Part shown: piece after piece, positions 1,953 through 12,132 of the stretch | Layout of the letters: every line of letters starts with the position of its first letter | Numbering within the stretch: the first letter of the stretch is position 1 | Virus record (IMG/VR): IMGVR_UViG_3300037751_000123 | Location: 1 to 26,326 of that record | From: a virus | Lineage: Duplodnaviria > Caudoviricetes | Direction: 5' to 3' (one strand) | DNA length: 26,326 nt | Notes under the pieces: generated by a model | The model's input: the letters and a program-made list of their open reading frames with translations, nothing else | What the model was told of the DNA's origin: nothing | The model's database searches: none | Program-made: the position numbers and the translations under genes

Positions 1953-3800
1953 TCAGAGCTTCACGGCCTCGTAACAAGCGAACGTCAGCCCAGGCTTTCC
2001 GGTGTTGTAAAATGGCTCCCGGAAAGCCTCCATCACCAGGAACACGCGGGGATTGTCCTCTTTCAGCAACACGGAATTCATGTAGCCAAGCACCGCGTAT
2101 CGCACGGACTCCGCCTCCTGGGCCGGTTGGATGGAGCGAAGCAAAGCCGACACCTTCACCCACTTCTCGCCCTTGATCAACGCCCGGCAGAGGTCAATGA
2201 CTTGGGCTTCCTCCCCTGCGGCTTGTTCACACGCCGCCAGCAGCTTCTGTGCGGGGAGATCAATCACCTTGTCGAGGATCACCAGCGCCGCCCGAACGTG
2301 ACCGAGGGAGTTCTGGTGGATGAGTTGGTATGCCTCCTCCGGGAAATCCGCGACACCCTCCTCAGTTACGATCCGCTTGAGAAGCCGCGTCATCTGCTTC
2401 TCGGAGAGCGGTGCCACGTTGAACTGCATGCAGCGGCTTTTAATGGTTTTCAGCAGCTTCTCGGGGTCCGTGGTGCAGAGGATGAAATAGACGTGGGGCG
2501 GCGTATCCTCCAGGATTTTGAGGAGGGCGTTCTGAGCCGGTCCCAAGTAGCTATGGGCTTCGTCAAGTAACCACACCCGTACCGGCCCACCGATGGGGCG
2601 AAGCCGCGCCTGAATCCTGATCTCCCGGATGGCGTCGATGCCCCGCTCCCCACCGGCATCAATCTCCCGGAAGTCAATGTCTGCACATCCCAGGTGGTTT
2701 GCTACGATTCGTCCCAGCGTTGTTTTGCCGCAATTATGATGGAACACCCCGCCCATCCAATAATTGTTATAAATGGGCACGTGAAAATCATAATATTTTT
2801 CCTTGGCAATTTCAGTAATTTGTTTTATATAGGTATATGTGGTTATGGGTTCGCCGCAACCGGAGTCATTATTTAAAACAGGAGGAAGAGATGCCGAAAG
2901 GAATTTATGAAAGGAAGAAACGCAATCCGAAGCTGACCCCTGAAAATGATTTAGAGATAAGGGCAGATTACAATGGGGGCATGGGGATGAAACCCCTTTC
3001 GAAGAAATTTTCTGCTGGTTTAAACCAGATTCGCAAGTCACTGGAGAGAACTGTTCCTGGGGAGAACCGGGAACATCGAAAGGGCCTGCCGAGGGAGAAG
3101 AACCCAGCGTGGAAAGGGGGCCGGATAATTGATTTCGATGGGTATGTTCTTCTCCTGTTCCCTGAACACCCGGATTCAAATTCACAAGGTTACATCCGGG
3201 AACACCGTCTTGTAATGGAGAAGCTGATTGGCCGTCGGTTGCTCCGGCGAGAAGTTGTCCACCACAAGAATGGCAATAAGCAGGATAATTCTCCTGAGAA
3301 CTTGTTGTTATTTTCAAGCAATGGGGTGCATCTTGGGGTTGATCTTCTTGGCAAAAAACCGAATTGGACCGAAGACGGACTTCTTCGTATCCGTTCTCGA
3401 TCAATTCCTTTAATGAGAGGTATTGTCCAGTGTCCAAAAGGAACCGGTGCCCGTACGTCACGAAGAAAACGGATTCTGGAGTTTCTACACGAAACATCCG
3501 ATCTTCAGAATACTGGACTGGAGGCAGGGCTTGAGCTACCACCGGGATACCAGCGGAATTCAAAGAAATAACATGGAACGGCTTTGCAGATAAAAATCTA
3601 TCTTCAATGGAGATACTGCTGCGATCTGTTGGATCATAGAGCACGGTATCTCCATGAAGACAACCACTGCTGCCGGTGAACAGCATAGCATGGGGGATAT
3701 CAGTCTTTCTCGCCAGCACGGTTTTGAGGGCGTCTACGGTGCTGCGGTTTCCCTCGACCTCGTTCAGGGTCTTGGGGCGGTAATCAAGATGCAGAGACAT
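1953..3800 (-). CDS. dnaX: DNA polymerase III gamma/tau-like clamp loader subunit containing an intein
   Basis: ATG at 3800 with AGGAG RBS. N-terminal YRPKTLNEVEG, Walker A GSSG|CGKTT (interrupted), EIDAGGERGIDAIR, Walker B LLDEAH, AQNALLKILED, and TIKSRC (SRC motif). About 305 aa after splicing. Confidence 0.92.
   Translation of the reverse strand: MSLHLDYRPKTLNEVEGNRSTVDALKTVLARKTDIPHAMLFTGSSGCLHGDTVLYDPTDRSSISIEDRFLSAKPFHVISLNSAGIPVVAQALPPVQYSEDRMFRVETPESVFFVTYGHRFLLDTGQYLSLKELIENGYEEVRLRSNSVFCQEDQPQDAPHCLKITTSSQENYPAYCHSCGGQLLAGATDGQSASPLQDGVPGCNLVNLNPGVQGTGEEHTHRNQLSGPLSTLGSSPSAGPFDVPGSPQEQFSPVTCESGLNQQKISSKGVSSPCPHCNLPLSLNHFQGSASDCVSSFHKFLSASLPPVLNNDSGCGEPITTYTYIKQITEIAKEKYYDFHVPIYNNYWMGGVFHHNCGKTTLGRIVANHLGCADIDFREIDAGGERGIDAIREIRIQARLRPIGGPVRVWLLDEAHSYLGPAQNALLKILEDTPPHVYFILCTTDPEKLLKTIKSRCMQFNVAPLSEKQMTRLLKRIVTEEGVADFPEEAYQLIHQNSLGHVRAALVILDKVIDLPAQKLLAACEQAAGEEAQVIDLCRALIKGEKWVKVSALLRSIQPAQEAESVRYAVLGYMNSVLLKEDNPRVFLVMEAFREPFYNTGKPGLTFACYEAVKL
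2733..3662 (-). mobile_element. Intein (310 aa) in the DnaX Walker A motif
   Basis: Begins CLHGDT (block A), has FFVTYGHRFL (block B TxxH), ends YYDFHVPIYNNYWMGGVFHHN followed by +1 Cys. Removing it restores GSSGCGKTT. Visibly more AT-rich than the exteins. Confidence 0.93.
2891..3571 (+). CDS. HNH homing endonuclease encoded antisense within the intein
   Basis: GGAGG at 2881-2885 then ATG at 2891. N-terminal HTH-like segment (LEIRADYNGGMGMKPLSKKF), NPAWKGGR motif, and HNH core GYIREHRLVMEKLIGRRLLRREVVHHKNGNKQDNSPENL. Confidence 0.88.
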   Translation: MPKGIYERKKRNPKLTPENDLEIRADYNGGMGMKPLSKKFSAGLNQIRKSLERTVPGENREHRKGLPREKNPAWKGGRIIDFDGYVLLLFPEHPDSNSQGYIREHRLVMEKLIGRRLLRREVVHHKNGNKQDNSPENLLLFSSNGVHLGVDLLGKKPNWTEDGLLRIRSRSIPLMRGIVQCPKGTGARTSRRKRILEFLHETSDLQNTGLEAGLELPPGYQRNSKK

Positions 3801-3924
3801 CGATGTTCTCCTTTCGTTTGGTTTCTTGTACGGCATAGCATTCCTCGCAAAGATAAATCCCGTCTATCAACACGACGGCACTCCTCTCTGGGTGGTATTC
3901 GCACCGCCTATTTGTTTTCAGCAT
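3784..3924 (-). CDS. Small zinc-finger-like protein (46 aa)
   Basis: MLKTNRRCEYHPERSAVVLIDGIYLCEECYAVQETKRKENIDVSAS: CxxH...CxxC pattern; fills the gap between the polymerase and dnaX genes with overlaps at both ends. Confidence 0.5.
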   Translation of the reverse strand: MLKTNRRCEYHPERSAVVLIDGIYLCEECYAVQETKRKENIDVSAS

Positions 3925-5383
3925 AATCCTTGTCCCCACATACCGGACACGCCCAACCAAGCGCGGCCCCTGTCTCTTTGTCCTTGAGTTGCTGACGCCA
4001 TACCGCGCCACATCCAGGACAGGCTTTCCCACGCTTAACCTCTTTCTTGAGGAACCAGGAGCCGTTCAGCGGAGACGCTTCAATCTCCACCTCCAGCGGC
4101 ACGATGATCCATTCCCACTGCGACGGCACCCAGGAACACATCACCCGCCGCACCGTCGCCATGACGTGGTTGTATTCGTCCTTGTGGACTTCCAGCACCA
4201 TGGAATCGTGGATCTGGCCAATCAACCCGCTTCGCCACCCCTCTGCCTTGGAGATCCGTGTGACTTCGATGATAGCTTTCAGGAGGCAGTGGAACGACGC
4301 GCCTTGGATGGGGTAGTTGATGACCTGATTTCTCCGCATCAACCCCTGGAAGCGGAAGCCAGTCAAGCAATCCGCATATCCGTTTTTCACATAAGCTTTG
4401 TAGTGCTTCTCCTTCCACTCCCCGTAGACCCCGAAACGATTGCTCCAGAAGTCGTTTTCAACCTCTTTGATATGGGACTCGAATTGGGAGTAATTTTTGA
4501 TGCCAGCGGACGCCAGGTGCTTCTTGAGGGGAACCCCTGCCCTAGTGGTGAGGTTCATCTGGTCGATGGCATCCCAGAGGTCTTTCGCCACCTGGCCGTA
4601 ATAGCTGCCGTAAAACTCCGGGAACACATACTTGTTCTTGGCGCAATACCGGGTGTTCTTGTTCCACTGCTCCATATCCAGCGCATAGCACTGCATCGCC
4701 ATGTCGCGGTGCATGTCCTTGGACTTGTCCAGGATATAGGTGAGCATGGTGGGGTCTTTGTGATAACACGCAGCCCCCCTTACCTCGATGCCGCTGAAAT
4801 CTGCCTCCGCAATCAAGAAATCCGGGCGGGGAACAAACGCCCGCCGCACCGTCTTCTGGAAGAATGGGTCACGGGTGGGCTGGTTCTGAAAATTTGGGTT
4901 CTGAGAGCTGCTCCGATAGGTCTGCACGGTGTTGAGGTTGAAGGAGGGACGCAGCACGCCGCCTACTTGCTCCCGTAACAGGTTGTCGATGTAGGTGTTC
5001 TTGATCTTCTGAAGGCCGCGCAACTCTAGCAACCCCTGTGCCATGGGGCTGTCGATGCCACCTAACGCCAGCTTGTCGGTACTATCCTCACCGCTGCCCG
5101 TCTGGCTGGTGGAGACATATCCGAGGCGGGTGAAGAGCATGTCGGCGAGTTGAGTGTCTGATCCCAGGTTGAATTTCCCTCGGTAGATGCTGCGCCACTG
5201 CTTGACCTCGGCGTCATCCATCAGCTTCTCAGTGAGCCGGATGATCTTGCGTTCCAGGTGCTGGCTCTGGTTGCGGCAGTACTCGACGTCAACCAGCATG
5301 CCCCGCTGCTCGGCGGCGGCTAACGCCAGGGTGCCGTCATGGAGGAGCTGATAGGCTTCCCGTGAGATTGGAGAGGGGATCAT
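3908..5383 (-). CDS. polA: Family A DNA polymerase, polymerase domain, with C-terminal zinc ribbon
   Basis: TYRSSSQNPNFQNQP, motif A EADFSGIEVR, motif B RYCAKNKYVFPEFYG, NYPIQG, motif C QIHDSM, C-terminal CPGC...CPVC. Likely start is ATG 5383, 1 nt after the upstream stop. Confidence 0.92.
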   Translation of the reverse strand: MIPSPISREAYQLLHDGTLALAAAEQRGMLVDVEYCRNQSQHLERKIIRLTEKLMDDAEVKQWRSIYRGKFNLGSDTQLADMLFTRLGYVSTSQTGSGEDSTDKLALGGIDSPMAQGLLELRGLQKIKNTYIDNLLREQVGGVLRPSFNLNTVQTYRSSSQNPNFQNQPTRDPFFQKTVRRAFVPRPDFLIAEADFSGIEVRGAACYHKDPTMLTYILDKSKDMHRDMAMQCYALDMEQWNKNTRYCAKNKYVFPEFYGSYYGQVAKDLWDAIDQMNLTTRAGVPLKKHLASAGIKNYSQFESHIKEVENDFWSNRFGVYGEWKEKHYKAYVKNGYADCLTGFRFQGLMRRNQVINYPIQGASFHCLLKAIIEVTRISKAEGWRSGLIGQIHDSMVLEVHKDEYNHVMATVRRVMCSWVPSQWEWIIVPLEVEIEASPLNGSWFLKKEVKRGKACPGCGAVWRQQLKDKETGAALGWACPVCGDKDYAENK

Positions 5384-5384
5384 A

Positions 5385-5585
5385 TCACCCCTTCTCCGTG
5401 ACCCGCTCCCACACCCGCTCCAGCACTTCAATCTGCTTGGGAGATATGGACGCAGTGTTTGCAAGTTGAACGCCGACGGAATCAATGAAAACGATTTCCC
5501 ACTCCGTGAGCTGGCTGCACCGCTGCTCACAATCATGGATCATCGTCAGGTATTCGTCCGTCCAGTGTGGTTTCTTCTCTGTCAC
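5385..5585 (-). CDS. Small hypothetical phage protein (66 aa) between the two polymerase halves
   Basis: LTEWEIVFIDS...ISPKQIEVL pattern seen in small phage proteins; GTGA overlap with the upstream gene. Confidence 0.65.
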   Translation of the reverse strand: MTEKKPHWTDEYLTMIHDCEQRCSQLTEWEIVFIDSVGVQLANTASISPKQIEVLERVWERVTEKG

Positions 5586-6805
5586 TTCGTCGCCTCCATT
5601 TGCATCATCGCAATTTGATGTTCGTATATTGAATCCAAGCCCCCATACAACAACAAGTCATACGGCTCTATTTCGTCGATGTGGTTGAAAGAGTTGCCGC
5701 CGTTGTCATCGGATTGCAGCAGGTGGGAGACGTGCTCATTCCAGGGCAGCACGCCGAGGTGCAGATACGCCAGTACCTTAACTGAGGTGATGTCGGGGCG
5801 GTTGTCCATGACATGCCCGGCCAGCATCGTATCCCACGCCCACCCCTGCGGCTTGATGTCCAGCACCGCCGTAGAGGCGTTGTCTTCATATTTGATGTTT
5901 GAGGCGATCTTACCAATGGCTTCATCAATCAGTATCTTACGGAATGCCGCCAGCCCCTCCGCGTTAACATCCTTCCACATCCACGCCCCAGCCTCAACCC
6001 CGTTGAACGACATCGAGCAGGAGACAATGCGGTGGCCCTCGGCGTGTAGCTTGATGCCGGTGGTCTCATAGTCAAACGCCAGGTATCGGGGACGCAATGC
6101 CAGGATTCTCCCCAGGTATTCCGTGACCCGGCGTGGGGTATCAAGGATCTCGACGCCCTTCCGTTCATCCTCCCACGTCGGTAGCACGTCGCCCAACCGG
6201 CACAAGGCCCTGGAGACGTCGTCCCGCCATATCTTCAGCAGCACCGGCTCCTTGCTCATCTTGTGAATATAGGAAGGATGGAAGGTAGGGCAAACCCAAG
6301 CCCCTAGCTCCCGGTCGGGGATATTCCAGCCGCGCCACTTGTGGATGCCGCCAAGGTTCTTCTTCCAGCGGCCCAGCATCAGTGACTTCACGGCGGCGCC
6401 ACCGAGGAGGATAATCAGGTGGGGCTTCCGCGCCTCGATCTCTTTCCAGACCATGGGGTGACACCAACCTATTTGGGCATCGGTGGGCATCTCCTGGTCT
6501 TTTGGCAACCTGCAATTCACGGCGTTCATCTTCCAACAATCCACGTCGAGATCGATGCCGTGCCGTCGAAGCTCTCCCCGGAGCAAGGCACTGGCTTCCC
6601 CGACCCCGACTTCGCCCTGGGCGTCCTCCTTGTGGCTGGGGCATTCCGCCAAGATAAAGATGCGTTTGGCGCCGCCCCCGGTGACACCCATGCGAGGCGT
6701 CCGACACTGCTTGTGGAGACCGCAGGCGCCGCATCCGGTGATGGTGGTGGTGCGACTGGCTACTTGGGCGGCAGCCGCTGTGAGTTTGAAGAAACCTTGG
6801 CTCAT
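5582..6805 (-). CDS. Uracil-DNA glycosylase-like (family 4) domain fused to a 3'-5' proofreading exonuclease (N-terminal half of an SPO1-type polymerase)
   Basis: CGACGL, ILAECP, NAVNCR, IGWC and TFHPSY (UDG-4 Fe-S cysteines and HPS motif), then Exo I AFDYETTG, Exo II NIKYED, WDTMLAGH and Exo III YGGLD. ATGA overlap at 6802-6805. Confidence 0.88.
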   Translation of the reverse strand: MSQGFFKLTAAAAQVASRTTTITGCGACGLHKQCRTPRMGVTGGGAKRIFILAECPSHKEDAQGEVGVGEASALLRGELRRHGIDLDVDCWKMNAVNCRLPKDQEMPTDAQIGWCHPMVWKEIEARKPHLIILLGGAAVKSLMLGRWKKNLGGIHKWRGWNIPDRELGAWVCPTFHPSYIHKMSKEPVLLKIWRDDVSRALCRLGDVLPTWEDERKGVEILDTPRRVTEYLGRILALRPRYLAFDYETTGIKLHAEGHRIVSCSMSFNGVEAGAWMWKDVNAEGLAAFRKILIDEAIGKIASNIKYEDNASTAVLDIKPQGWAWDTMLAGHVMDNRPDITSVKVLAYLHLGVLPWNEHVSHLLQSDDNGGNSFNHIDEIEPYDLLLYGGLDSIYEHQIAMMQMEATK

Positions 6806-7518
6806 CTTTCCATCATCCGTGTCATCAATCTTTTGAAGGCTTCTGCCATACATTGGGGGACTTGTCCGTTTCCAATGGCTTTAAGTCTGTCCACTTCTGA
6901 GGCCATCCCATTAACCACTCGACCCACGTCGGGTTCGGTGGACCACCAACCATTTCTGCTGGGGTGGGTAGTCTGTCGGCCCCTTCTAACCATTTTTTGC
7001 TTCGCTGACTCATAGATGCGGTTGGAGTCGATAGCCAACACCCACATTCTTTCGCGCTCATGTGGTGCCCCCACCTCCGCCGCTGATAGCACACCCCATT
7101 CCGCATCATACCCCATCTCGGCCAAGTCTCCGAGAACAACGGATAGACCACGTTGAGTGAGGAGCGGGCTGTTTTCCACAAATGCAAATGGGGGTCGTAC
7201 TTCGCCAATAATCCTGGCCATTTCTTTCCAGAGCCCTGAGCACTCTCCGCTGATTCCGGCACCTTTCCCGGCGGCGCTGATGTCTTGGCAAGGAAACCCG
7301 CCAGAAACCACGTCAACAATTTCCCGCCAAGGTCTGCCGTCAAAGGTGCAAACATCATCCCAAATTGGGAAGGGCGGGAGAAGGCCGTCATTTTGTCTGG
7401 CGGCAAGAACGCTTGCGGCATAGGGTTCCCATTCAACAGCACAGACAGTCTGCCATCCGAGCAACTGCCCGCCTTGTATTCCTCCACCAGCGCCCGCGAA
7501 TAAAGCCAGCTCATTCAT
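6802..7518 (-). CDS. C5-cytosine DNA methyltransferase, alpha-like chain
   Basis: Motif I LFAGAGG, IV GGFPCQDIS, VI FVENSP, VIII PHERERMW and X RLKAIGNGQVP; very short variable region and no motif IX. Confidence 0.92.
   Translation of the reverse strand: MNELALFAGAGGGIQGGQLLGWQTVCAVEWEPYAASVLAARQNDGLLPPFPIWDDVCTFDGRPWREIVDVVSGGFPCQDISAAGKGAGISGECSGLWKEMARIIGEVRPPFAFVENSPLLTQRGLSVVLGDLAEMGYDAEWGVLSAAEVGAPHERERMWVLAIDSNRIYESAKQKMVRRGRQTTHPSRNGWWSTEPDVGRVVNGMASEVDRLKAIGNGQVPQCMAEAFKRLMTRMMER
6825..7514 (-). CDS. Nested alternative-frame ORF, probable methyltransferase beta subunit carrying motif IX
   Basis: 229 codons open in a second frame; ATG lies 4 nt after the alpha ATG (ATGAATGAGC); C-terminal GGPPNPTWVEWLMGWPQKWT resembles motif IX (L.P.E.E.LMGFP..WT). 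Confidence 0.7.
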   Translation of the reverse strand: MSWLYSRALVEEYKAGSCSDGRLSVLLNGNPMPQAFLPPDKMTAFSRPSQFGMMFAPLTADLGGKLLTWFLAGFLAKTSAPPGKVPESAESAQGSGKKWPGLLAKYDPHLHLWKTARSSLNVVYPLFSETWPRWGMMRNGVCYQRRRWGHHMSAKECGCWLSTPTASMSQRSKKWLEGADRLPTPAEMVGGPPNPTWVEWLMGWPQKWTDLKPLETDKSPNVWQKPSKD

Positions 7519-8568: not shown

Positions 8569-8861
8569 TTCGTGGTGTAGTCGGCGTCAACGGGATAGTT
8601 GACAGCATTGATTTCAATCTTCTCATGGGCGGCGGCAACAAGGTCGATGCCATTGTCATCCGCCAGATAGGTGAGGATGATAAAGACATCGGCAAGCTCC
8701 TCTTTCAGCCGCTGTTTATCCGGGGCCTTCCCCCACTCGAATAGCTCTGCAACCTCCCCGGCCTCAATCTGTAACTTGTGAGAGAGTGCCAGCCCGGAAT
8801 GGAATTGTTTCCAATTCCTGGCGTCCCGGAAATTCAATAGGGCTTCAATCAATCGTTGCAT
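8550..8861 (-). CDS. MazG-like nucleotide pyrophosphohydrolase
   Basis: FRDARNWKQFHS, EAGEVAELFEW, EELADV, KIEINAVNYP. Confidence 0.88.
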   Translation of the reverse strand: MQRLIEALLNFRDARNWKQFHSGLALSHKLQIEAGEVAELFEWGKAPDKQRLKEELADVFIILTYLADDNGIDLVAAAHEKIEINAVNYPVDADYTTKWRAQN

Positions 8862-10105
8862 GTTGTCCTCTTTCTAGGAACAGCCGTAGAAACGGCCTTC
8901 TTTTCTTTCTTCAGCTTCAAGTATTTGCCGTAGGCTTCACTTTTTGGTTGAGTCAGGCCCAGCCCCTTGCACCACCAGTCATTTCTGAGCAACACTTTAC
9001 ACAACCGCCGCCAGCTTGGTGCCCAGTACTGATCTTCAAGAATTTTAGGGGCTTCATCTGGGATACCATCAACATATCCGCGCCTCTTCCACCCGCGAAT
9101 AAACCCCGTGAATCGCTCGATGTAATGTTCCCTTGTCACCTGAGGCATTGTGGACAAAAGGAGGTTGCAGAAGCTCTTCCAAGTGTGTCCCTCAGGCTTG
9201 ATAATTTTGTTGTAACCGTTGATGTTCCCGGTCTCATTGATGTACAGAGTGCCGCTGTTCACCCCATTTACACGGGCCACAACTTTATACCATGTCTCCG
9301 GCTCCAAGATGTGGTACAACCACAGCCCCCGGCGCTGATCGTCGCCATAGGGTTGACATAGGCGCTGTTGGCTAGGCTTTACCCCAGCCTGGTGCATTAG
9401 ATCGTAAATCTTGTTGTGCTCACGATCCGGGAATTTTGCATGATACGTCCAGATATCCGCAGTCTTCCAGTCATAGATTGGGTACACATTGAAGACCCCA
9501 TCAACAACTTTTGTTGTCCAACGTTTATCTTGAAACGTCTCTTTGTCGTTTATTGCTATTGTTCTGAAACGGTTTAGACTCTCATCGGCCCTGATTCCAA
9601 TAAAAGCGGCGGTATCTTTCCCACCACTGAACCACTCCGCAAATAAGATAATGAACTCCTCAAACTCCATGCGGGGCTGAAAGAACGGAAAGAAATCAAT
9701 GTCTTTTATCACGTTGTCGTGCTTTGGAAAGGGACGGACCCAATCAAGTTCCCGTTCTTTATCCCAGCAGGTCCAAGATGGCTCAAAATTACTGACGGCA
9801 TTTCGCAGGGCAATTGGGAGGCATATCCAGTAGACATCCACGTTGTCGGCGTACCGCCTGAACATCTCCGAGGCATGTTCGGATGTGTGCTGATATTGCG
9901 CCTCAAAATCAATAAGCATCACAGCAACTTTCCGCCCTCGTTTTATCGCCTCATCCATTACAAGATGGAACATGACGGAGCTGTCTTTACCTCCTGAGAA
10001 ACTGATAAAGATCTTCTCGAAGTTATCAAATGTAAAGGCAACCCGCTCCCGCGCTGCCGTCAGAACATCAATACCAATGTAATTTTTTGTTTTCATAGGA
10101 TTCAA
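8849..10105 (-). CDS. ibrA: IbrA/YbdN-like PAPS reductase family (PP-loop) protein
   Basis: SFSGGKDS PP-loop, GIRADESLNR, YPIYDW, QRLCQPYGDDQRRGL, C-terminal PSWRRLCKVLLRND. Start may be ATG 10096. Confidence 0.88.
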   Translation of the reverse strand: MNPMKTKNYIGIDVLTAARERVAFTFDNFEKIFISFSGGKDSSVMFHLVMDEAIKRGRKVAVMLIDFEAQYQHTSEHASEMFRRYADNVDVYWICLPIALRNAVSNFEPSWTCWDKERELDWVRPFPKHDNVIKDIDFFPFFQPRMEFEEFIILFAEWFSGGKDTAAFIGIRADESLNRFRTIAINDKETFQDKRWTTKVVDGVFNVYPIYDWKTADIWTYHAKFPDREHNKIYDLMHQAGVKPSQQRLCQPYGDDQRRGLWLYHILEPETWYKVVARVNGVNSGTLYINETGNINGYNKIIKPEGHTWKSFCNLLLSTMPQVTREHYIERFTGFIRGWKRRGYVDGIPDEAPKILEDQYWAPSWRRLCKVLLRNDWWCKGLGLTQPKSEAYGKYLKLKKEKKAVSTAVPRKRTTCND

Positions 10106-10524
10106 TAAATATTGGCTTCTGTTTTTGACTGCACGTCTTCCATTGCCAATGTGGGGTGGCCATTCCGTTTAAACCAGACATTCATATATTTTAACGCCAT
10201 AGCATCAGCAGCCCCCTTCTGTTCCTCGGTGAGCAGATTATAGCCGCCTCTAAAACAGGCCGGGATTCCATTGTGGATGCAAACAGAGGCTTGGCCAAGC
10301 CAGGCGATACGGTTCATATTTGGATTGGTTAAGTAGTGCTCGCAAGAACAACGCCATTCAGAAATCACCCGTTTCAATGCGGATTCAAATAGTGACAAGT
10401 CGATAAGAAAATCACGGTAGAATTCTTCCGCCTCAGTTGTCGTCATGCCACCTGGTGGACGCTTCCCGTAGAACCCGGCGGGGAAACATTCCCACTTGTC
10501 CCATGTGTGGTAAATCCGTTCCAT
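10102..10524 (-). CDS. Hypothetical protein between ibrB and ibrA
   Basis: MERIYHTWDKWECFPAGFY...SCEHYLTNPNMNRIAWLGQA; overlaps both neighbours; purine-rich RBS. Confidence 0.75.
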   Translation of the reverse strand: MERIYHTWDKWECFPAGFYGKRPPGGMTTTEAEEFYRDFLIDLSLFESALKRVISEWRCSCEHYLTNPNMNRIAWLGQASVCIHNGIPACFRGGYNLLTEEQKGAADAMALKYMNVWFKRNGHPTLAMEDVQSKTEANIY

Positions 10525-11216
10525 CACACATCCCCCTCTTCAAGGATGCTGAAATCATCCTCGTTGAATATCTCGGCATCCCAGGCTTCACTGAAATCAT
10601 TGTCGGCGAAAACCTCAACCAAACCGGAGACCTGACAGAGCCGCAAGACCTCATCGGGATCCATGCCCAACTCTTTGCAGATACGATTGTCAGACCAATT
10701 CCGCTTTTTAAGCTCGATGACGATGTCAGACATGGAGTCAATTTTATGTTTGCCCCTGGCCCGATTATGCCGAATCGTAGAAGCAATTCGATCATTCCGG
10801 TTTTCCCTATCCTGTTTTATAAAAACAACAGGCAGATAACCGTGCAGCCGCATCTTTACCTTAGCGCTTTCCTTACCGACTCGATTTCGATGAAAACCAT
10901 CAATTACTTCGATGTGATCTTCATGAGGCCATGTTACAATTGGCTGGGTATAGCCATCAGAAAGGATGGAGTGCTCAAGTAACTCCATTTCAGGCGGCGC
11001 CACTGCATTCGGGTTGTAATCGTTGGCTTGCACCCGATCATTGATGACCCATTGAACACAATCAATAGGCTCATCTTTAAACGGTGAGGTCTCAGATAAC
11101 ACCAAACGGACTTTATTCAAGACATCAACTTGATCGTTGATGTGCAACGTCCTTAATTTATCAGTCAATTCGGTTGCAACATCAATTATTGACTGCTTGT
11201 ATTCAGCTTTATTCAC
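10524..11216 (-). CDS. ibrB: IbrB/YbdM-like ParB/Srx-domain protein
   Basis: ANDYNPNAVAPPEMELL, DGYTQPIV, IDGFHR, STIRHNRARGKH and a C-terminal HTH (ICKELGMDPDEVLRL). Confidence 0.9.
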   Translation of the reverse strand: MNKAEYKQSIIDVATELTDKLRTLHINDQVDVLNKVRLVLSETSPFKDEPIDCVQWVINDRVQANDYNPNAVAPPEMELLEHSILSDGYTQPIVTWPHEDHIEVIDGFHRNRVGKESAKVKMRLHGYLPVVFIKQDRENRNDRIASTIRHNRARGKHKIDSMSDIVIELKKRNWSDNRICKELGMDPDEVLRLCQVSGLVEVFADNDFSEAWDAEIFNEDDFSILEEGDV

Positions 11217-12132
11217 CGTAAAGCCCCTCTGCGTCTCTGTGTTGTCTGGGAGTGGTTACAATCCCGAAACCAGGCCGCTTATTCCTGATTTTATCGAGTT
11301 CAAAGTCAGCGAATGGTACCTTGTCCATGATTCCATTCTTGGACTTCAACCAATACGAACGGAACCGTTGCAACTCGTATTCAGTCCACCCCGCCTTAGT
11401 GTTGATGAATTCGTTTTTATGGGAGGCACCAAGCGGCTGATACCGCATCGGGTAGATTTCATTGGCGCCCATTTTACGCAGGCGCTCGGCGCGATACAGG
11501 GCGTCCGCCGGGGTATCCGTGAATCCGTACAGCATTAGCACTGAAATGCGCTTCAAGCCGTTCCTATGGGCCGTTTTGATGGCCTCCTGTAGATGGCCTT
11601 CCTTATCCGTGGAATCGAAGGCGAAGCGCACGTCATGCACCTTCAGCTCGGCTATTCTTGCCGCCCGCTCCTGCGTGAATAGCCGAGCCTCCAGCCCTTG
11701 ATTGAACTCCACGTATGGAAGCGGCTTCAACGCATCAACGACGCGATTAAAATGCCGTTTCGACGACGCCAGGAAGTTGTTGTCGCAGATGATGGGGCGC
11801 GGGATGAAGTTTGCGATCTCCCGAAACTCCCCCTCAATCTTGGGCACCGCGCAGAATGCACAGTTGTTGACGCATCCGCGTGTCGTGAACGTCGCCAATG
11901 GATTGTGGAAGGTGACGGGTTCGCACCAATCAATAGTCTTTTCAACTGGAGCGATCCCGGCCAATCGATCCTGGGCGAGGATAGCGCCGGGACCACCAAC
12001 CACCACCGGCTTCTTCTGCTTGCCGATGAATGCAATGGCCTCATCAATGAGCCAAGTAAATGGCACCGATAGATACACGGTGCCATTTACTTCCCATGAG
12101 GCAATGGTTTTACGCCATGGATTGATTGACAT
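11209..12132 (-). CDS. Radical SAM protein
   Basis: TTRGCVNNCAFCAVP (CxxxCxxC), DNNFLA, FNQGLEARL, RFAFD; short N-terminal VVVGGPG segment. Confidence 0.88.
   Translation of the reverse strand: MSINPWRKTIASWEVNGTVYLSVPFTWLIDEAIAFIGKQKKPVVVGGPGAILAQDRLAGIAPVEKTIDWCEPVTFHNPLATFTTRGCVNNCAFCAVPKIEGEFREIANFIPRPIICDNNFLASSKRHFNRVVDALKPLPYVEFNQGLEARLFTQERAARIAELKVHDVRFAFDSTDKEGHLQEAIKTAHRNGLKRISVLMLYGFTDTPADALYRAERLRKMGANEIYPMRYQPLGASHKNEFINTKAGWTEYELQRFRSYWLKSKNGIMDKVPFADFELDKIRNKRPGFGIVTTPRQHRDAEGLYGE

Follow-up and report, generated by a model that had tools for sequence, protein, structure and literature searches.

How can one stretch of phage DNA encode a protein-splicing element on one strand and a nuclease on the other, with both frames open? 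The question is raised by the clamp-loader gene (dnaX) of IMGVR_UViG_3300037751_000123, a linear virus record (Caudoviricetes, about 34% complete) whose 26,326 nucleotides, taken as a whole, are called the window here. On the minus strand an intein interrupts the Walker A motif of a DnaX-like ATPase, and on the plus strand an HNH endonuclease gene lies entirely within that intein. We read the pair as a single mobile intein with its functions on opposite strands, splicing on the minus strand and, through a separate antisense helix-turn-helix (HTH)-HNH gene, probably homing on the plus strand; our probability for this reading is roughly 0.8. Both strands of this two-strand element are under selection.

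An intein in the Walker A motif of DnaX

The features of the minus strand are as follows.

1953..3836, minus strand: DnaX-like clamp-loader ATPase precursor, 627 residues from the ATG at 3836 (Pfam)
2733..3662, minus strand: intein, 310 residues, exactly 930 bp, splitting Walker A between GSSG and CGKTT
3363..3662, minus strand: N-terminal splicing region, about residues 1-100, with Cys1 and block-B TxxH
2850..3332, minus strand: intein linker, predicted to be disordered, weakly conserved as protein, free of stops
2733..2849, minus strand: C-terminal splicing region, about residues 272-310, with DFHVP and HHN, then Cys+1

The open reading frame (ORF) at 1953-3836 on the minus strand matches PF13177 (E 3e-21) and PF00004 (E 3e-8), and the precursor runs from FTGSSG into the intein (CLHGD...GGVFHHN) and out again at CGKTT. 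In the intein-less homologue P0126, translation starts at the second ATG (3800). An earlier reading of this DNA from its sequence alone had proposed a 310-residue intein in the DnaX Walker A, with splicing blocks at both ends and a centre unlike protein, and all three points hold. The insert is bounded by the split Walker A motif and matched by exact empty alleles, described below. Cys1, block-B TYGH, block-F DFHVP, the terminal His-Asn and Cys+1 are present, with C1, T69, H72, H309 and N310 invariant among 10 intein alleles. Pfam recognises the intein weakly (PF14890, E 9e-4, below the cut-off), and in an AlphaFold model based on 10 alleles confidence is high for residues 1-100 and about 272-297; intein or HINT domains account for each of the model's 31 best fold matches, led by NpuDnaB (Z 9.9, root-mean-square deviation (rmsd) 4.1, 135 aligned residues). 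At residues 111-271 the model's pLDDT (predicted local distance difference test) falls below 50, and amino-acid identity of the linker over the stretch opposite the HNH core is 28%. With its motifs intact and its frame free of stops in an essential-type gene, the intein is predicted to be spliced out of the precursor.

Pfam found no endonuclease family in the intein frame. This absence, the low-pLDDT linker and the nuclease on the opposite strand rule out a canonical bifunctional intein, while the single 627-residue ORF and the antisense nuclease rule out a fractured gene or split-intein locus.

An HTH-HNH gene on the opposite strand

The nuclease gene is divided as follows.

2891..3571, plus strand: HNH endonuclease gene, 226 residues, antisense and entirely within the intein (Pfam)
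2939..3052, plus strand: three-helix HTH domain, predicted to bind DNA, HNH residues 17-54 (model and PDB sequence search)
3083..3355, plus strand: HNH catalytic core, residues 65-155, best fold match I-HmuI
3371..3568, plus strand: HNH tail, basic and partly helical, residues 161-226, antisense of intein residues 31-97

The translated ORF matches PF13392 (HNH_3) with E 1e-8 and 35.1 bits (cut-off 24.8) and has about 30 full-length homologues at 46-86% identity; H124, H125, N133, N137, N144 and H147 are invariant among 35 HNH homologues. In its structural model a three-helix HTH at the N-terminus is followed by a confidently predicted core and by a tail with two helices of lower confidence. 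A PDB sequence search matched the HTH part only, and the tail, searched as part of the whole HNH model, returned no fold match. The HNH gene with ribosome-binding site (RBS) and HTH that had been proposed at 2891-3571 is thus borne out by an above-threshold HNH_3 match, an upstream AGGAGG and the predicted three-helix domain.

Both reading frames are under selection

The register of the overlap is not the codon-aligned one that yields most shadow ORFs in the window, as the sequence-only reading had pointed out: position 1 of the HNH codon lies opposite position 1 of the intein codon, with positions 2 and 3 crossed. The other two antisense registers contain 13 and 4 stops. We judged synonymous-codon shuffling a better null for stop counts than a flat 3/64 per codon. 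Over the first 160 HNH codons of the window, the intein frame has 0 stops where 5.7 are expected (P 0.002) and the HNH frame 0 where 6.1 are expected (P 0.001); over the last 66 codons the HNH frame has 0 against 2.2 (P 0.055). Both frames are open, as had been said, and the accompanying figure of about 10 expected stops gives way to 5.7 in the intein frame over the first 160 HNH codons.

Selection was examined in 15 DnaX-type alleles with a whole intein ORF, leaving out L177 (cut), L185 (linker stop) and L200 (a mini-intein); among those kept, L151 lacks the usual HNH ATG and L157 has a divergent extein. The intein frame shows 0 stops against 88.7 expected under synonymous shuffling, and the HNH frame 0 against 67.5 plus 38.4 with intein codons shuffled, counts that overstate independence since the alleles share ancestry and were picked as open. 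In the HNH core, nucleotide identity at the three HNH codon positions is 0.67/0.76/0.40, and amino-acid identity is 0.62 in the HNH frame versus 0.28 in the intein frame; in the intein-only stretch the nucleotide pattern is reversed (0.58/0.40/0.73). The freedom of HNH third positions, together with the difference in amino-acid identity, indicates that the letters of the linker are set by the HNH. Fourfold-degenerate intein sites outside the overlap are saturated (0.30 identity), so there has been enough time for stops to have arisen.

The tail of the HNH is a separate case, because it runs beneath the splicing domain itself. The DNA of HNH residues 161-226, read antisense, codes for intein residues 31-97, block B included, which agrees with the earlier statement that the last 60 or so residues of the HNH read the antisense of the N-terminal splicing domain. 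Across HNH residues 161-200 all three codon positions are conserved (0.76/0.68/0.74), and fourfold intein sites beneath the tail reach 0.49 and 0.64 identity versus 0.30 outside the overlap. The control was 41 inteins in which the HNH ends at or after intein residue 60: there, fourfold identity is 0.27/0.27/0.31, and the tail frame over intein residues 32-59 carries 56 stops, against 0 in the DnaX alleles. The tail is selected in both frames. It is also basic (net charge +5 to +18), and the DnaX-branch HNH was likely extended by overprinting, acquiring a basic DNA-binding tail from the antisense of the splicing domain; the conserved tail sites may, alternatively, reflect another constraint at the nucleotide level.

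Expression signals of the HNH gene

Three further plus-strand features bear on expression of the nuclease.

2803..2831, plus strand: predicted sigma70-type promoter (TTGGCA, 17 nt, TATATA), inside the C-terminal splicing strand of the intein
2880..2885, plus strand: Shine-Dalgarno AGGAGG of the HNH gene (sequence)
3889..3910, plus strand: terminator-like hairpin between dnaX and polA, a weak candidate for the end of the antisense transcript

A purine-rich RBS occupies the same place before the HNH ATG in 14 of the 15 DnaX alleles, L151 being without that ATG. The promoter-like site lies at the same offset in 13 of the 15 and scores above synonymous recodings at P<0.05 in nine (window P 0.003), as it does in 20 of 54 other family members; we regard the sequence evidence for an antisense promoter as moderate. 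Terminator-like hairpins are no more frequent than chance (1 versus 1.6 expected), and the hairpin is found in the empty allele too.

A phage intein family with an antisense HNH

Relatives were gathered by HNH similarity, by an HNH-derived motif and by intein patterns, giving 223 loci; at 90% identity, the 188 with an HNH core formed 87 clusters. In 77 of these the HNH is antisense within an intein and keeps the register seen in the window, a fraction that describes the closest relatives only, as one search took the best 80 of 528 matches; in one other search for relatives, one of nine matches was embedded in an intein. The 77 embedded clusters comprise 70 whole elements, four cut by a contig end, one mini-intein with an HNH remnant and two with stops in the intein frame. 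The remaining ten clusters are free-standing, with no intein block nearby, and eight of them have stops in the register in question. Two free-standing HNHs (L068:2302-2848 and L101:323-1028) group among the embedded ones and are either escapees or a donor lineage. Searching from the intein side with the two patterns recovered 35 loci, namely 25 full-size inteins, each with an antisense HNH, and 10 mini-inteins; one of the two patterns lies beneath the HNH tail, which makes this search not fully independent of the HNH. A search of viral contigs with a single intein protein gave no match, and an alignment-based search succeeded.

The 69 whole elements analysed sit in 22 extein groups, nearly all at a P-loop. 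Among the host genes, for which 50 proteins were scanned, are DnaX, an SMC-like ATPase, several terminase large subunits and helicases of the SF2, SNF2 and strawberry-notch types. In all 60 inteins that could be delimited with confidence, Cys comes first, His-Asn last and Ser, Cys or Thr directly after; TxxH is found in 55 of them, and the HNH motif is intact in 67 of the 69 elements. Since GTDB genomes yielded two loci, both on contigs of one metagenome-assembled genome, the family looks phage-borne within the sensitivity of that search. Every run that holds the sequence holds a small share of it, so no habitat is inferred, and no RNA dataset is listed among the holders.

The layout also occurs in cultured phages. 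A tblastn search of phage isolates found a terminase P-loop intein with an antisense HNH in Pseudoalteromonas phage PHS3 (KX912252.1; L273:1277-2176) and Pectobacterium phage Ymer (OP748252.2; L272:1223-2086), in both with the same register and 0 stops. The terminase intein is unannotated in either GenBank record: annotation of the PHS3 terminase begins only beyond the intein and gives a truncated piece, and in Ymer the HNH is unannotated as well. Nine records carry this HNH subtype, including seven more of the Ymer type, and the layout was examined in PHS3 and Ymer. The words intein, HNH, endonuclease and homing are absent from the main text of the Ymer paper. Among cultured phages there was no match to the DnaX intein of the window, nor to a partial terminase-intein query.

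Empty alleles, movement and decay

A phage about 92% identical to the window (L224) has an uninterrupted site, with 9 of 138 and 68 of 780 flanking bases different and 97% amino-acid identity; the element is therefore exactly the 930-bp intein. Both L224 and P0126 lack precisely these 930 bp between GSSG and CGKTT. Two contigs bear on the site as well: one from run X2 connects the sequences on either side of the intein, and one from run X3 departs from the window at the insertion point into N-extein-like sequence. Distribution is patchy: 48 extein relatives include 43 empty alleles, two with an intein (one of this family, one unrelated) and three unresolved. A count of 119 'empty' proteins among 120 is not used as a frequency, because that search excluded proteins as long as the precursor. 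In a quick tree of exteins, the window's extein is sister to the empty P0126 and is surrounded by empty alleles, and at least 4 gains or losses are required by well-supported branches. The intein has a G+C content of 45%, the C-extein one of 59%.

Reduced forms are found alongside the full ones. Antisense pieces of the HNH persist in the mini-inteins L198, L200, L201, L207, L211 and L222; the first three occupy the same DnaX site and retain the rear part of the HNH, and in L198 the whole tail frame is open. As they carry such remnants, the minis at the DnaX site are deletion products of full elements and not an un-invaded precursor. P0204, considered as a further mini-intein, was rejected as a fragment of the gene of L027.

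Three loci stand apart. In L210:223-1293, on the same contig as L066, the linker has three stops, the C-terminal splicing half is immediately preceded by an RBS and ATG, and an intact antisense HNH lies in between; this locus is a candidate natural split intein derived from the family. L185:270-1178 has one in-frame linker stop with no obvious restart and an intact HNH, and the stop is either an error or early decay. Upstream of position 1501 in L239, a different intein with an in-frame LAGLIDADG-like motif, recognised by eye, occupies the same DnaX Walker A site; the sequences indicate that two unrelated elements compete for it.

How the element may work, and what competes with this reading

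On the reading we prefer, the minus strand would give a DnaX precursor from which splicing removes the 310-residue intein, disordered linker included. The plus strand would probably express the HTH-HNH protein from its own promoter and RBS as an antisense transcript. During co-infection this protein probably nicks an intein-less dnaX near the Walker A codons, and repair of the nicked gene would copy in the whole 930-bp element. HNH enzymes like I-HmuI nick DNA rather than cutting both strands, and the I-HmuI-like fold of the model suggests the same here. The arrangement would be locked: stops in the intein frame would cost the phage its clamp loader, and frameshifts would disrupt both genes. 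Elements would decay when in-frame deletions leave mini-inteins and, in rare cases, when stops divide the intein.

Several observations weigh against this reading, in addition to the shared ancestry of the 15 alleles. (i) Structure: the best structural match of the HNH core, I-HmuI (PDB 1u3e; Z 6.7, rmsd 3.8, 80 aligned residues), is tied with HTH matches, and Foldseek gave no match to the HNH model at E<=0.001 (core E 0.36). (ii) Promoter: the window's -10 box, TATATA, is a poor variant, a stricter promoter scan did not call the site, and part of the score is A+T richness, as the control strand is also raised (8.5 versus 7.7). (iii) Phylogeny: intein and HNH trees agree only in part overall (Mantel rho 0.33, 11 of 66 splits shared) and less still across host families (rho 0.13, against 0.59 within host groups), and the approximately unbiased (AU) test did not reject a single origin of the embedded HNHs (p 0.275, 39 versus 13 rows). 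(iv) Open frames: L185 and L066/L210 carry stops in the intein frame.

The sequence-only reading had envisaged a free-standing HNH gene invading a mini-intein in reverse orientation, with a two-strand mobile element as the result. That element is now better supported, while capture at this locus is rejected: the event is old and common to the family over many host genes, and the minis at this site carry HNH remnants. A bolder account, which we hold tentatively and at somewhat below even odds, is that one ancient reverse capture of an HNH founded a large intein family, which spread among the P-loop sites of about 20 gene groups, came to hold a promoter in its C-terminal splicing strand and, in the clamp-loader branch, acquired through overprinting a functional DNA-binding tail of 66 residues. 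A single origin of the embedded HNHs, which the AU test allows, is favoured by the fixed register. If true, this account would provide a dated, testable case in which the reverse strand of an enzyme gene gave rise to a protein domain, within a family where deletions also produce mini-inteins and stop codons produce split inteins.

The HNH could instead be a hyperparasite of the intein, homing into minis that lack it or swapping between inteins, with its target in intein DNA rather than at the empty P-loop. The weak congruence of the deep intein and HNH trees would fit this, as would the free-standing HNHs that fall among embedded ones and the mini-inteins at the same site. However, the minis at the DnaX site keep HNH remnants and hence derive from full elements, what the nearest empty allele lacks is exactly the 930-bp intein of the window, the trees do track each other within host families, and both the HNH tail and the promoter form part of the splicing domain; we consider such a hyperparasite unlikely. 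Slightly less likely again is an HNH in the window that no longer homes, either as a silenced relic or because its antisense transcript damps clamp-loader expression late in infection. The non-canonical -10 box of the window allele, the decayed forms in the family (the L151 start codon and the minis) and the orientation of the HNH, which is that of the terminase genes and opposite to the replication genes, are compatible with this alternative, but the catalytic residues, the RBS and all 226 codons are intact, an empty allele about 92% identical points to recent movement, and conservation tracks HNH amino acids and not merely nucleotides. A plus-strand ORF that arose as a chance shadow frame or through an inversion in the assembly, an idea for which the several long shadow ORFs of the window might speak, is already refuted by the HNH_3 match, the homologues, the third-position freedom in the HNH frame and the same layout in two GenBank phage isolates; misassembly is also excluded by the 14 other DnaX-type alleles that share the layout.

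Relation to known systems

The sequence-only reading knew of no described example, which does not stand: antisense nucleases of LAGLIDADG and Vsr-like type have been described in contiguous actinobacteriophage inteins (Gosselin, Arsenault, Gogarten, bioRxiv 10.1101/2025.01.02.630785). In the portions of that preprint available to us, an out-of-frame endonuclease VII and an in-frame HNH are also reported in phage inteins, such layouts are called rare, and capture of a free-standing nuclease is proposed, as in the sequence-only reading. The element studied here shares with those inteins a contiguous architecture, a separate ORF on the opposite strand, an unstructured in-frame linker, a proposed capture, continued spread and a patchy distribution. 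It differs in that its nuclease is not of the LAGLIDADG or Vsr-like type but an HNH_3 enzyme with an N-terminal HTH, the HNH reported there being in frame, and in that the antisense layout, thought a rare exception, is the normal state of a phage intein family that spans 22 extein groups and has been missed by annotation. The antisense HNH version appears undescribed; a literature search, with subscription journals and bioRxiv supplements outside its reach, found no report of an antisense HNH intein.

The host-gene family recurs in a dnaX intein of cyanobacteria, in which a LAGLIDADG nuclease, out of frame, is under selection of its own (Phillips, DeSimone, Gogarten, bioRxiv 10.64898/2026.09.14.751524). 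Going by the part of the preprint at hand, the two cases also share an overlapping frame with its own Shine-Dalgarno sequence, frame-dependent selection and the coexistence of empty, mini and full alleles. There, the LAGLIDADG lies in a '+2 ORF' of a cellular gene, whereas here an HNH lies on the opposite strand of a phage gene at Walker A. The words antisense and HNH are absent from that part of Phillips et al., and Gosselin et al. term the same element anti-sense.

The ShiLan insertion of mycobacteriophage methylases is an HNH that lies out of frame and has no intein around it (Arsenault et al. 2025, PMC11855218). As far as the available part of the paper goes, it resembles the present element in hiding an HNH_3 in another frame of a host gene whose own frame stays open, and is unlike it in lying on the same strand with no splicing domain, where the HNH gene here is surrounded by a complete intein. 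The ShiLan HNH of the phage Starcevich methylase (L276, OR475289.1) is a distant relative (35% identity across residues 36-141); HNHs of this group have therefore become nested inside coding genes more than once.

In fractured genes, split inteins flank a free-standing GIY-YIG or Vsr-like nuclease (Dassa et al. 2009, PMC2677866). To the extent that the source was accessible, those phage loci likewise place a separately expressed nuclease between intein halves, but they consist of three ORFs on one strand with a split intein, in contrast to the contiguous intein and antisense HNH of the window. The L210/L066 locus, with its linker stops and its RBS and ATG before the C-terminal half, looks like a bridge to them.

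I-HmuI is a phage group I intron enzyme that carries its HTH at the C-terminus. The HNH of the window has an HNH motif of the same Pfam family, and I-HmuI is the best match of its catalytic core; unlike I-HmuI, it resides in an intein, has its HTH at the N-terminus and ends in a tail without a match.

With full, mini and split-looking forms all present, the family bears on how inteins gain and lose nucleases. It also supplies a natural case of a long antisense overlap, catalytic domain included, that is selected in both frames. The question of homing can now be put to experiment, as L224 offers an exact empty target and cultured phages carry the layout.

Other features of the window

In the window, the minus strand carries the replication genes and the plus strand the terminase genes. 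A tRNA-like stretch with an unusually long middle occurs on the minus strand at 1630-1800, where ARAGORN called no tRNA. Next to dnaX, at 3908-6853, polA is present as two genes by Pfam, a polymerase domain (3908-5536) and a uracil-DNA-glycosylase fused to a 3'-5' exonuclease (5582-6853). At 6802-7518, a C5 cytosine methylase ORF of 238 residues is overlapped on the same strand by a second ORF of 229 residues (6825-7514), for which there was no Pfam match. Finally, PAPS-reductase/DUF3440, ParB-like and radical SAM genes cluster at 8849-12132 (Pfam), an assemblage that we take to resemble the kind met in phage DNA-modification loci.

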